62,354 bases of DNA from a virus (taxonomy: Duplodnaviria; Heunggongvirae; Uroviricota; Caudoviricetes): the IMG/VR virus record IMGVR_UViG_2880412407_000008; one strand, 5' to 3'. Shown here one piece after another: positions 19,401 to 25,400 of the stretch. Made by a program: the position numbers. Each line of letters begins with the position of its first letter. Within the stretch, counting starts at the first letter, position 1.

Positions 19401-22400
19401 AGCGCTACCTTGAAAAATTGCTGATGACCATCAAACCGGTGACACGGGCTGAAGCTGTGGAGGTGTGTCGCTGGTTCCTGGCTAGTGGTAAGGGGGAGTA
19501 CATGAAAGATGACGGCGCTGCAGTCATACTCAATCTGGTTGGGGAGTGTGAACAATGAAGCCTGAGGCATCGCTAAAATACTTCCGCCATCAGTGCATCG
19601 CGGAAATCAATATAACGAAACAACGTAACGGTTCTCTGGGAACGATTTACCGGCGTTTTTATAACGGACATTTTCTGCCCGTAGACCAGGAAAGCGCACA
19701 GGTTCTTTCCACCCCAATGCGGCCATCCCAGCCGCGCAGATACAGCAACAAACGAACTGACAGCAGTAAGATGGAGCGCTTCTTTTGAACAACCAGACAA
19801 TGACTTTTACCCCTGAACAATTGCGTAAACAGGCACAGGAAATGTTGCGACAGGCGGAACAACTGGAAAAAACAGGTGTAACAAAAGATGCCATTCGTCG
19901 GGATATGGTGCCGGCGCTCAGGGAACTGATGCAGGCGAAGCACCGCGCACAAAAAGCAGTGGATGAGATGGTGGATTGTGTGGCAGAACTGGAAACCAAA
20001 GTTGGTAAGTTTGAAAAACTGGTGCAGGAGGTACTGCGCTGATGCGTGATATGTACGAAGTTTTAGATCGTTGGGGGGCTTGGGCTGCAGCAGAAAATAG
20101 TGGTGTCGACTGGCAGTCGATAGCGGCAGGCTTCAAGGGGCTTCTATCACACGGTAAAAAGTCACGTCTCCAGTGCGATGATGATGAAGGAATTATGATT
20201 GATGGATGTGTGGCCCGGTTGCGGAAATATAAACCAGAAGAATATGAGCTGATCATTGCTCACTTTGTTATCGGGATTTCTCTCCGTACAATTGCAAAAA
20301 AGCGGAAGTGTTCAGATGGCACAATCAGAAAAGAACTACAAACAGCATTGGGGTTCGTTGATGGGATGCTATTTATACTTTCAGATAACTGAATTTTAAT
20401 ACTGTTAATTTAGTTATTTAGAATTGATGTGATTTAGGGTAAAATGCATTTAATTTCCTGGTTTTGTATGAGGTTCAGCATGACTACATTTTTTACCCCA
20501 TTACGTTATCCCGGTGGAAAAGGGAGGATGGGGCCTTGGTTATCAGAACTGCTGAGGTATAACGGAATTAGTGGTGGGTATTATGTGGAGCCATATGCTG
20601 GCGGCGCAGGAGCTGCATTGTATTTGCTAATGCATGGATATGTAGATCATGTCATTATTAATGATTTGGATCCTGTTGTTTACTCATTTTGGTGGTCAGT
20701 GTTAAATGAGAATGATAAATTTATTTCATTGATAAATGAAACAGAAGTAACAATGGATAATTGGTATAAGCAAAAAGATGTAATAAACAATTATACTAAA
20801 TATGATATTTTATCTATTGGTTTTGCTACGTTTTTTCTCAATCGAACCAATCGTTCTGGAATCTTATCAGGTGGGGTTATAGGAGGAAAAGAACAGAGTG
20901 GTAAATATAAGATTGATGCTAGGTATAATAAGAAGAAACTATGTGAAAGAGTAAAAAAAATAGGTGGAATGAAAAAATTTATTGATCTTTATAATTTGGA
21001 TGCCTGTGAGTTGATTGGTAGTATAAAAAATACACTACCAAAAAAATCTCTAATTTATCTTGATCCTCCATATTATGAAAAAGGTAGCCAGCTTTATAGA
21101 AATCATTATAAACCTCATGATCATAAATTAATTTCTGAAAAGGTTAAGGATATTTCCACTCCGATAATTGTTACATATGATAATTGTGAAGAAATCAGGA
21201 AGTTATATAAAGACGAAAAAATTGTGGAGTTTTCTTTACATTACTCAACTCATTTGACAAGGCCAAGAGTTACAGAACTTATGGTATATAAAAATTTAAA
21301 TATTCATAGCATTCCCTCTATGAAGAAGAAATGAAAACTGTACGCTGGACTAATTTATTAGTCCAGCGTGGTATATCATTTTAATCTTTCCAACAAGCCC
21401 GAACAAAACAACCTATATTGTCCCAAAAAACATTAATTGAGATATAATCTGGGTGATGTGTCTCTCTGTGAATTAATTTTTGTAAAGTTTCAATGTGCAC
21501 AGTTCCTTGCTCGCCGCGAGTATAAGCTGATATTATATGGTGTTCTGAGTCAGTGATTAGATTATTTTTCAACATATGATCTGCGCTATTAGCAATATTT
21601 TTAGCTAAGGCTTTTTTATCTTGCAACTTGTTAATTGTTCTATATTCTTTATCACTTAACTCCAGCAGTGCCCGAAGAAGAAATGCAGTTGCAAGAGTTG
21701 TTTTTTTTACATCTAATTGCCTAAGTTCTGAGATTATAGTTCTTATTTTAGTCTCATCTTCAGGAATCGTAATTCCAGGCTTTCCTCTACCAAAAATTTT
21801 ATTTCGCTCTGCTGGTATTTTTTTAGGTGTAACTCCTCTACCTGCGTGTTTTTTTAGTAGTACAGGTGCGTCACTCTTACTATCTGATTGCGCATTATTG
21901 TTATCCACCTCAGATGGAGAGGAATATTTATTTGTTTCTTCTTTTTTATTATTTTCTTGTTCTGTGTCATCACTATTGTAAGCAAAATCATCTATTATTC
22001 CTGCATACTTTCTTACCGAGCAAAGATATTTCTTTGCATCGCTAGGATTAAAGACGGTGTTAACATCAACTATTTTTGAAGAAAAGTCGCTATTAATTTT
22101 TGAGGCCATTTTTATTATTTTTTCTTTTGAGAGTATTGGCTTCAATTTATCATTTTCCACTTCAAATCCTAACAATAGAAGATTATCTCTAGTAAAGAAT
22201 CTGGCTACACTAGTGATTGGGAAATCATCATCTACATCAATACCTTCTTGTTCAGCCCAACACATATATTGACCAGCTCTTTTATAATCAGTTGGATGTC
22301 CATTATTTAATAGATAAATTGTTCGCATATATGCAAACCAGTCATATTGACCAGCACCATTACGTGCTCCAGAATGCCTTGCTATTATCTCTTTAAATAC

Positions 22401-25400
22401 TGCTTCAAAATTGTCACTTGATAAACAGTCAACAGTAGTAGGTATGTTGTCATGATATTTTTCTTTTATTTTTTTTATTTTCGGAATTAAATGTGGCTCC
22501 GGGCAACTATCTGGGTTATTTAATAGTTTTAAAGCTGTTATTCGTCTATTACCATCTTTAACTACCCATTTACCTTCTGAGTGAGGCATAACCAATATGG
22601 GCATGGTTGTAAGTCCGTTTTCTGCAATATCTTCCATCAATACAAGCATCTGGTTTTCTTGACGCAATATCCTCGAAATGCAGTTGTTTTGATCTCTACC
22701 TGCGCGGATTCTGGCATTTTCAGTATCGAGGAGGATATTTTGAATTGGAATGTCTATTTGCTGAGTGAAATCTTTACGAGCCATATAATATATCCTTGTT
22801 TTAAAATCAACCCATCGATTAATTTTACAAAATCATTAACGCGTACGCAAAAACTATTGTATTGTGTTAAGGATAGTCGCTTCGCCACACAGCTTAAACC
22901 TGCCGCCGAGCGGGTTTTTTTGTGCCTGAAAAGTGGCGCAGTACGTTAAACGCGCTGGTGGTTGCGAATACCGGTCTTTCAGCTTGCTGGCTTTTTCGAC
23001 AAGAGTTATTGGTGTGTCACGTTAACCGGAAAAAGGAAAGTTTGAGAAACGCGATCTGGCACAGGCGGTTATTAATGCTGCCTACCTGGTGGCCTGTGCA
23101 GATGGTGAATGTGAGGCTTCCTAGAAAGCGAAGATCGAACAGGTACTGCGTAATCAGCCTGCGCTGTCCGCGTTTACGTCAGAAATTAATGCGATTAGCG
23201 CAACCATTATCGGTCAGCTGGATACGAACTTTAAAATTGGTCGTCGTGCGGCGTTACGTGAGATCGAGGATGTGAAACACGATACGCGTGAAGCGGAAGA
23301 TGTGCTGGATGTGGCGGTGGCCATTGCGGAGGCAGACGGCGAAATTGAGCCGGAAGAGCGCAAGGTGCTGGAAGAGATTGCCGGTGTTCTGGGTCTTCGT
23401 CTGGAGAATCACCTGTGACGGTAAAACTGCGCCTGGCTGTGGCTGCACTCCTGCTGTTTCTGGTGGTGATGGTGGATTTCACCAGCAGAATCATGTCGGT
23501 GCTGGCGGATGGGGTGCTGGTCTGCGGCATTGTGGTATTGCTGTAGCCGGTGATAAAAAGAAACAGCCTGCATAATGCTTGATTTTTTTATTTGCTGTTT
23601 ATTAAAAATACTACTGCATGGTGAATCCCCCTGTGCGGAGGGGCAATCAGCAACCAGGTATATGTGATAATCGCGGATTCAGGTGCTGATACTGAATTCA
23701 CCGGGAGGCACCCGGCACCATGCAAGAAAAAGAATGTGCATGCAAAAATGCCCCTCTCCGGAGGGGCATTTTTTATGGGTAAAAAATGCCCGAATGGGTT
23801 CGGGCAATAGCATGAGATACTGATATTGTTGTGTTGTTATCGTGTGGATTTTAACCAGGGTTTATCAGGCTGCGCAACTGCGTGGCCTTCTTCATTTCTT
23901 GGGCTGTAGTCCCCGTGTGTCATTCAGGCTTCCGGACTACAGCCCACTCCATATCTGATTTAATACACTATCCCGGCCGGGAGGAATAATGACATTTAAA
24001 CATTATGATGTTGTCAGGGCGGCGTCGCCGTCAGACCTTGCGGAAAAGCTGACACACAAACTGAAAGAGGGCTGGCAGCCGTTTGGTAGTCCGGTGGCCA
24101 TAACCCCTTATACCCTGATGCAGGCGATTACAGCAGAAGGTGATGTGGTGGTCAGTGGTGCAACTGAGCCGGATTGGTACTACGTCATCGTACTGGCCGG
24201 GCAGTCCAATGCCATGGCTTACGGTGAAGGGCTTCCGCTGCCGGATTCATACGATGCTCCGGATCCGCGCATTAAACAGCTGGCGCGCCGCAGTACAGTG
24301 ACGCCGGGTGGGGCTGCCTGCAGATATAACGATATTATTCCGGCCGACCACTGCCTGCATGATGTGCAGGATATGAGTACGCTGAATCATCCGAAGGCAG
24401 ACCTGAGCAAAGGGCAGTACGGCTGTGTCGGCCAGGGGTTACATATTGCCAAAAAACTGCTCCCGTATATCCCGAATAACGCGGGGATCCTGCTGGTACC
24501 ATGCTGTCGTGGTGGTTCGGCATTTACCCTGGGCGCGGAGGGGACATTCAGTGCGGACACGGGGGCCAGCCAGGATTCGGCGCGCTGGGGTGTGGGTAAA
24601 CCGTTATATCAGGACCTGATTGTGCGCACCAAAGCTGCATTACAGAAGAACCAGAAAAATGTGTTGCTGGCGGTGTGCTGGATGCAGGGAGAGTTTGACA
24701 TGAGCGCCGCCACCTACGCACAGCAACCTGCGCTGTTTACAGCCATGCTGAAGCAGTTTCGTGCTGACCTCACTGTGTTTAACGCGCAGTGTCATGGTGG
24801 CAGTGCTGTAAATGTGCCGTGGATTTGTGGTGACACGACGTATTACTGGAAAAACACCTACGGCACGCAGTACAACACCATTTACGGGGCGTACAAAAAC
24901 AGGGAGAGTGAGGGCGTTTATTTTGTGCCGTTCATGACAGACGGTAACGGCGTCAATACCGCCACTAATGTGCCGGCAGAAGATCCAGATATTCCGGCAT
25001 CAGGATATTACGGTGCGGCATCGAGAACGAATGGAAACCAGGTATCATCAAACCGCCCGACACATTTTAGTTCATGGGCGCGCAGGAGCATTATTTCGGA
25101 TCGCCTGGCAACCGCTATTCTGAACGCAGCCGGGCGCACCTCAGCCTTCATCAGTGGTAAGGCACCGGAAATCAACCCCTCGCCCGGCGGCGATACGCCA
25201 TCGGGGCCGTCTGATAGCGAAACATCCGTCCGCACAGTCTCCCTGCTGCCGGCAGACGGAGAGGCTGCTACGCAGGGCTGGACTATTAAAGATGGCGGAA
25301 TTCAGCTGGCAGATGGTGTATTTAAGATCACCAAGCAGAGCAATAAAACCTGGTCCCTGGCGCATCCGGTGGATGACGCAATTACCCTGCTGACACAGGG

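Follow-up and report, generated by a model that had tools for sequence, protein, structure and literature searches.

A predicted PD-lambda-5-type defence cassette in a Q-proximal cargo slot of a defective lambdoid prophage of Escherichia coli O121:H19

The defence system PD-lambda-5 came from a functional selection in Escherichia coli ECOR7 as a pair of proteins (RCQ13837.1/RCQ13838.1) labelled "ParB/HEPN, methyltransferase" and "RM+Abi"; it protects against nearly all of a 10-phage panel, and its cloning required an mrr-deleted host (Vassallo et al. 2022, Nat Microbiol, PMC9519451). The need for such a host indicates that the ECOR7 methyltransferase is active in vivo. In the literature found, later papers only cite or count PD-lambda-5, and a mechanistic study was not found. 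Here we analyse a two-gene cassette of the IMG/VR virus record IMGVR_UViG_2880412407_000008 (Duplodnaviria; Heunggongvirae; Uroviricota; Caudoviricetes), whose whole stretch of 62,354 nucleotides is called the window. Carried by a defective lambdoid prophage in E. coli O121:H19, where it lies directly after the antiterminator gene Q, the cassette joins an adenine methyltransferase (component B) to a convergent protein with a ParB/Srx fold and a HEPN fold (component A). It is probably an anti-phage defence system of the PD-lambda-5 family, horizontally acquired as cargo between Q and a conserved post-Q module. A preliminary description, made from the sequence alone, had seen here a unit with the logic of restriction-modification (R-M) defence that it could not name. 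Its first idea is borne out, since the two genes match both components of a validated system, and full-length matches of both proteins to PADLOC models of PD-lambda-5 supply the name.

The two components are as follows.

20480..21334, plus strand: PD-lambda-5 component B, D12-class N6-adenine DNA methyltransferase, 284 amino acids, WP_001370700.1 (PADLOC PDLC04018, PF02086).
21381..22784, minus strand: PD-lambda-5 component A, 467 amino acids, ParB/Srx fold and HEPN fold, WP_000101315.1 (PADLOC PDLC03998).

Component A matches PDLC03998 (PD-Lambda-5_A) with an E-value of 4e-74, residues 9-466 falling on positions 4-465 of the 466 in the model, and among its PADLOC matches listed (25 of 26 families) all are PD-Lambda-5_A models. 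Component B matches PDLC04018 (PD-Lambda-5_B) over its full length (E 1e-114) and the D12-class family PF02086 (E 9e-18); its DPPY motif (21062..21073) and its glycine-rich motif PYAGGAG for binding S-adenosylmethionine (~20597..20611) are both intact. The enzyme, its DPPY motif and its end had been read correctly at the outset, but its start had been placed at 20444. The true start is almost certainly the ATG at 20480, because RefSeq gives the 284-residue product from there, a GAGG Shine-Dalgarno sequence precedes this codon, the PADLOC match opens at residue 13 of the longer form, and homologues open at an equivalent MTTFF.

A reference of the ECOR7 type was reached via weak DNA matches of the methylase gene and confirmed by an exact cluster look-up; an E. 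coli search for it with two distant IMG/VR relatives (L027 and L029) had given no match. Strains KL53 and MSI001 encode a 501-residue hypothetical protein, followed in tandem by a 294-residue adenine methylase, at the P2 hotspot that separates the gene for the replication endonuclease from that for the portal. The KL53 pair spans 2460 bp, the span of the ECOR7 locus (Table S2, PMC9519451), the 90%-identity cluster of its methylase includes RCQ13838.1 (PD-lambda-5B), and its proteins match the same PADLOC models as the window pair. Full-length identity between window A and KL53 A is 24% (E 5e-20), and that between the two B proteins is 46% (E 2e-86). Both systems are prophage-borne and set a ParB-like and HEPN-like protein of ~470-500 residues beside a D12 adenine methyltransferase. 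They also share DGNRR, an arginine/acidic pair on HEPN helix 1 and a histidine before the last helix. They differ in layout: ECOR7 has A then B in tandem at the P2 gpA-portal hotspot, whereas here the genes converge on a hairpin in a Q-proximal lambdoid slot. Judged by its sequence, the cassette is a diverged member of the PD-lambda-5 family, with a different gene order and carrier phage.

The pairing of A and B is near-obligate, across Proteobacteria and at least one Firmicute. A methyltransferase homologue adjoins A in 20 of 22 IMG/VR loci, the exceptions being a locus that breaks off directly behind A and a match that is weak and partial, and in four of four A homologues looked up by protein. 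Among the A homologues, one from Serratia (68% identity) stands in the order Q, methylase, convergent A and lysis genes, the same slot as in the window, and one from Delftia (48% identity) belongs to a convergent pair in a P22-like prophage. Another is in tandem with its methylase in a P4/VapE-like integrative element with an integrase, and a further one is chromosomal, convergent with the methylase and beside transposases. Approached from the other side, three of three B homologues picked by B similarity alone (Moorella, Burkholderia and Pseudomonas) have a convergent A homologue (hmmsearch E 8e-159, 4e-139 and 5e-73, respectively). Co-occurrence elsewhere, which the preliminary description had left as a point to check, is thus found in all 20 informative viral loci and in all seven protein look-ups. 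The convergent layout is dominant, with six loci in tandem. Identity in A goes down to 25-29% where B keeps 50-59%, which indicates that A evolves much faster. A fast-evolving restriction partner beside a conserved methylase is typical of R-M systems. In one viral contig (L024:5001-6942), A is truncated to its N-domain (273 residues) and only the first 134 methylase residues can be recognised, apparently through a joint loss of both genes. In some relatives, a small gene of the Xre helix-turn-helix type lies directly upstream of A on the same strand (L010:4524-4871 and L044:6257-6502), and the window has none.

The element that carries the cassette lies next to ssrA (61295-61657) and is visibly decaying. 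Insertion sequences IS600 and IS3 interrupt its early region (~8690-9846 and 14007-15220), its replicative helicase is truncated (19597-19788), and its portal, tail-fibre and lom genes are frameshifted pseudogenes; it keeps sodC (~45376-45903) and intact type III effector genes nleL, espN and espK (~52038-60117). Among 5426 complete E. coli genomes, nine match the window at 100% identity; they all belong to the O121:H19 group, and in each of them the reading frames of A and B are undamaged, again with 100% identity. Exact copies of the A protein occur on 716 contigs and of the B protein on 229. An intact cassette among decaying prophage genes is consistent with selection. It would also suit an addiction module, in which A would be a toxin held off by the methylation that B provides, the pair would stabilise its prophage or mobile element, and defence would be a side effect. 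The obligate pairing (A was not seen without B) and the joint truncation in L024 fit this explanation, as does the carriage of the pair by lambdoid, P22-like and P2-like prophages, by a P4/VapE-like integrative element and beside transposases. We nevertheless hold it to be improbable, since the homologous pair of ECOR7 emerged from a selection for phage defence and was validated for it when carried on a plasmid; moreover, selfish stabilisation and defence can coexist in R-M systems.

Component A was divided into domains with an alignment of 50 homologues and an AlphaFold model whose predicted local distance difference test (pLDDT) is 82.

22380..22784, minus strand: residues 1-135, core of the ParB/Srx fold that binds nucleoside triphosphates (NTP), with N23-x-R25, DGNRR 77-81 and E132-x3-R136.
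21990..22379, minus strand: residues 136-265, conserved helical middle region (AlphaFold 2 model, conservation).
21822..21989, minus strand: residues 266-321, disordered low-complexity linker (pLDDT ~31 for residues 268-316).
21384..21821, minus strand: residues 322-467, HEPN-fold domain (structural matches; R371/E375, H439, W454 and D455 conserved).

The convergent 467-residue reading frame with DGNRR (encoded at 22542..22556) is as first described. The same description took A for a partner with a nuclease fold and about 300 unrecognised C-terminal residues, and here the picture changes: those residues resolve into a helical extension of the ParB region, the disordered linker and the HEPN fold, which is the effector-like part, and the N-domain has the ParB/Srx NTP-binding fold. 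The structural matches of the N-domain are, with their scores, KorB (8.9), PadC (8.8), pNOB8 ParB-N (8.1), SbnI (6.7), Srx (6.7), SerK (6.2), SspE (5.3) and BrxU (4.7), and Foldseek alignments to ParB, Noc and KorB extend through ~260 columns. According to a 2025 survey, the ParB/Srx fold binds the triphosphates of cytidine, adenosine or guanosine (CTP, ATP or GTP) in many non-partition proteins and is mainly an NTP switch (PMC12704722), so that the label of a nuclease fold is unwarranted for A. Residues D20, N23, R25, D77-G-N-R-R81, H137, G139, G143 and G145 are invariant even at 25-29% identity, and E132 and R136 among closer homologues only. By their position, these motifs would correspond to ParB box I (NxR), box II (the GxRR P-motif) and the E-x3-R spacing of box III. 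The helical middle region holds a loop modelled with low confidence (H137-x-G139...G143-x-G145-Q146..W149).

Pfam returned no meaningful match for A or for members of its C-domain, a profile search against Protein Data Bank sequences gave marginal ParB-like matches around DGNRR only, and the NCBIfam RepB model scored 17.9 bits, below its cut-off of 201.5. The linker does not align between homologues and varies in length and composition. Its composition follows the host, being rich in Asn, Ser, Asp and Lys here and in Pro, Ala and Gly in high-GC relatives, with ~50-80 residues family-wide.

The C-domain is best matched by the HEPN domain of Roquin (9.2), which is non-catalytic, followed by AF0298 (8.3), YutE (8.2), the HEPN domain of AbiA (8.2) and the HEPN-MNT toxins (7.4-7.8), with sacsin, Csm6 and RnlA/LsoA lower. 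In this domain, the whole A family keeps R371 and E375 (first long HEPN helix), H439 (before the last helix) and W454-D455; near the last helix the signature is Q435-x3-H439. R440 varies and stands too near the histidines, H443 is kept in close relatives only, and neither persists in distant members, among them the validated KL53/ECOR7 type.

With these domains in hand, A can be set against other described systems. GmrSD, BrxU and SspE (DUF262-DUF1524) likewise combine an N-terminal ParB-superfamily domain carrying DGxxR with a C-terminal effector in modification-dependent systems, and PD-T4-2 (DUF262 and HEPN) has one protein of the ParB superfamily and one HEPN protein. The effector of GmrSD, BrxU and SspE, however, is a His-Me/HNH nuclease of the DUF1524 type, whereas A has a HEPN fold. 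Those proteins attack or sense DNA that is modified, and none comes with its own methyltransferase, whereas the cassette family always co-encodes one; their structural match to A is weaker than those of KorB, PadC and ParB. EcoprrI-PrrC and RloC share with the cassette the association of a modification-based system with a HEPN-superfamily effector, which is the "RM+Abi" idea of the PD-lambda-5 authors. They consist of a full Type I R-M system and a separate ATPase-anticodon nuclease, unlike these two genes, which come with no hsd subunits, and the HEPN motif of A is non-canonical.

Type II R-M systems also have an adjacent, often convergent pair, in which the methyltransferase is conserved and its partner diverges rapidly, with an intergenic hairpin; the Xre-type gene upstream of A in some relatives resembles a controller (C) protein. 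If the cassette were a classical Type II system, the ParB-fold domain of A would itself be a site-specific DNA endonuclease. Some ParB/Srx proteins do nick DNA (cited in PMC12839542), B also matches the PADLOC Type II methyltransferase model (E 6e-93), and the convergent genes share a hairpin. Instead of a recognised restriction-endonuclease fold, the partner shows a ParB fold and a HEPN fold, and it lacks a PD-(D/E)XK, HNH, GIY-YIG or PLD domain. The conserved ParB motifs would form a nucleotide-binding pocket, the retention of B at 50-59% while A falls to 25% speaks against many paired specificities, and a strictly conserved HEPN domain would be left without a role. We therefore regard the classical Type II explanation as very improbable.

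Between the convergent stop codons, which are 46 nt apart, lies a conspicuous palindrome.

21342..21369, both strands: perfect 12-bp inverted repeat with a 4-nt loop, ACGCTGGACTAA-TTTA-TTAGTCCAGCGT.

The exact 12-bp palindrome had been noticed before and called a shared terminator; the palindrome stands, and the terminator scan does not report it. It goes uncalled because a run of four T alone follows on each strand, with no canonical T-tract, and for lack of such a call we treat it as a conserved hairpin and not as a proven terminator. Its predicted folding energy is -20.2 kcal/mol on the plus strand and -19.2 kcal/mol on the minus strand (z -6.7 and -6.5), equalled by none of 200 shuffles. 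Hairpins of unrelated sequence occupy the same position in the four closest convergent relatives (L004, L016, L017 and L018; z -4.5 to -5.8), and an equivalent one is absent from the more distant relatives checked. A hairpin kept with changed sequence in close relatives fits a structural role at both 3' ends, and the probable role of the palindrome is that of a 3'-end hairpin, or weak terminator, working in both directions.

Upstream of both genes, promoter-like signals can be seen.

20396..20445, plus strand: two overlapping sigma-70-like matches, TTAATA-17-TAGAAT and TTTAGA-17-TAAAAT (consensus scan, 9/12 each).

The position of these matches suits the start of B at 20480. Upstream of A on the minus strand, a putative TAAAAT and a good AAGGA Shine-Dalgarno sequence were read by eye.

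The limits of the cassette were drawn by comparison with other prophages, and two backbone features frame it.

20042..20392, plus strand: Q antiterminator gene, 116 amino acids (PF06530, E 1e-45); phage backbone, left edge of the cargo slot.
22826..22921, plus strand: conserved post-Q backbone module, right edge of the cargo slot (alignments with E423, Stx2_14040 and Stx2a_1447).

Both the Q-like antiterminator and the AT-rich unit directly after it (GC 0.33 against ~0.51 in the flanks) agree with the first reading of this DNA. The GC fraction is 0.329 over 20393..22825, versus 0.507 in the left flank and 0.518 in the right, and the list of open reading frames runs from Q (20042..20392) through a plus-strand frame ending at 21334 to the convergent minus-strand frame of 467 codons (21381..22784). 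The Q protein shares 87% identity with its Stx2a_1447 counterpart, the C-terminal tails being variable. Thousands of other prophages are homologous up to near the end of Q and again from ~22826-22894 onwards, which places the cassette-specific DNA from ~20365-20393 to ~22825; a DNA search of the cassette against the phage collection gave no match. In Stx2_14040 the post-Q module starts at the Q stop codon, and in Stx2a_1447 and E423 it comes after cargo of other kinds on the reverse strand, itself beginning 13-22 nt past Q: two hypothetical genes (179 and 343 amino acids) in the former and an NYN-domain gene in the latter. A strong intrinsic terminator (22896..22917 and T7, terminator scan) ends the module. 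The module, of ~95 nt, is shared by phages with this Q family (L045:3001-3164, L046:3001-3158 and L002 at ~4200-4400).

These alignments also relocate the cassette with respect to Shiga toxin genes. The preliminary description had assigned it to the slot where lambdoid phages carry stx, yet the conserved module lies to its right, and in the Stx phages compared stx2 is ~2 kb beyond the module, after another methylase and three transfer RNA (tRNA) genes. From the position of the module in related phages, the cassette would occupy a separate Q-proximal slot upstream of the late promoter, which the module 22826..22921 probably holds or precedes, as the synteny suggests. A late promoter between Q and the methylase was considered and rejected, as related phages have 13-22 nt from Q to the reverse-strand cargo. 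Lambdoid phages with this Q family would thus offer room for cargo between Q and the late-promoter module, apart from the stx slot and filled by varied reverse-strand genes.

The same position invites an explanation by benefit to the phage, in which B, a Dam-like enzyme, would shield phage DNA from host restriction or time its packaging and replication, and A would be a DNA-binding ParB-like factor in partition, packaging or regulation, with no part in defence. B is on the same strand as Q and directly downstream of it, so that early read-through could transcribe it on induction, the fold of A is closest to ParB, KorB and Noc, and prophages are enriched in fusions of ParB-fold domains with methyltransferases, for which a part in anti-defence has been proposed (PMC12704722). 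Set against this, there is no ParA gene in the annotated neighbourhood of the cassette, and A ends in a HEPN fold where a ParB would have its C-terminal dimerisation domain. The position of the pair in phage genomes is not fixed, the pair is also found outside phages in the chromosomal loci L011 and L044, and the tested relative gives protection from unrelated phages. That the pair serves the phage itself is, in our view, very unlikely.

The preferred reading, a PD-lambda-5-type defence, would operate as a compact R-M-like system. B would methylate resident DNA at the N6 position of adenine and so mark it as self. The ParB/Srx-fold domain of A, with the helical region that follows it, would bind NTP and DNA, read the methyl mark and engage DNA that lacks it, such as that of an infecting phage. 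This engagement may in turn switch on the C-terminal HEPN-fold effector, which probably cleaves nucleic acid, leading to restriction of the invader or to abortive infection. We favour this model because A was not found without B in the loci examined, because B is conserved while A evolves fast, and because the tested relative combines an active methylase (in conflict with Mrr) with broad protection. The addiction, phage-benefit and classical Type II explanations are each less well supported than this R-M-like defence model.

Several observations weigh against this reading. The experiments cover the ECOR7 pair, whose A protein shares just 24% identity with window A; gene orientation and setting are not the same either, the cassette being convergent and lambdoid and the reference tandem and in the P2 hotspot. 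The canonical Rx4-6H motif of catalytic HEPN ribonucleases is not found in A and, given the best match to the non-catalytic HEPN domain of Roquin, the HEPN domain of A may not be a ribonuclease at all. No nuclease domain of the four kinds named above offers a substitute, as Pfam gave no match for A and the fold searches returned ParB/Srx and HEPN structures only. Finally, the promoter-like matches near B are weak predictions of a consensus scan, in a region that is not enriched over shuffles.

The methylase model has a wider reach than the pair. In ~126 other genomes of the 5426 complete ones of E. coli, a methylase with 46-53% identity stands beside an ABC-type ATPase of ~570 residues (AAA_15/AAA_21) and not beside A. 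Such pairs occupy the P2 gpA-portal hotspot, neighbour integrases or adjoin icd. Examples are given below.

L013:3091-5803: methylase and ABC-type ATPase, E. coli M10.
L014:4900-7460: methylase and ABC-type ATPase, E. coli RM14723.
L037:1388-4027: methylase and ABC-type ATPase, E. coli GF31.

We could not name any system for this pair. Its methylases match the PD-Lambda-5_B model at E 1e-122 to 1e-124, and such equally good scores mean that the B model alone is not diagnostic of PD-lambda-5. Their distribution suggests that one methylase module may serve different effectors. A more specific proposal, which we offer tentatively and consider rather unlikely as a whole, is that A would be a ParB-type NTP-gated switch that reads N6-methyladenine and fires a non-canonical HEPN domain through a site formed by R371, E375 and H439. 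B-type methylases would then be self-marking modules with interchangeable effectors, in a family of ultra-compact, modular R-M-like prophage systems.

The defence pair is real, but its family is already named and validated, and the value left lies in its mechanism and in the lead towards a modular methylase. The domain dissection of A gives residues to mutate in the ParB NTP-pocket domain, the linker and the HEPN domain without Rx4-6H. A suitable annotation for the cassette is PD-lambda-5-type defence system; it belongs to the ssrA prophage of O121:H19, a Shiga-toxin-producing lineage, in which it may limit superinfection and gene flow. An O121 methylome was not found in the literature.

Elsewhere in the window, a separate element with two tyrosine recombinases is located at ~5182-7749. 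To the right of the post-Q module, the interval 23056-23546 holds a TerB-family pseudogene with an internal stop and a small DUF3927 gene, where Stx phages carry a methylase, tRNAs and stx; this interval has no tRNA genes. It is followed by two small RNAs placed back to back between the cassette and a NanS-p-like esterase gene, namely STnc100 (23590..23780, plus strand; 146 bits, Rfam) and the anti-GcvB small RNA AgvB (23781..23842, minus strand; 96 bits, Rfam).

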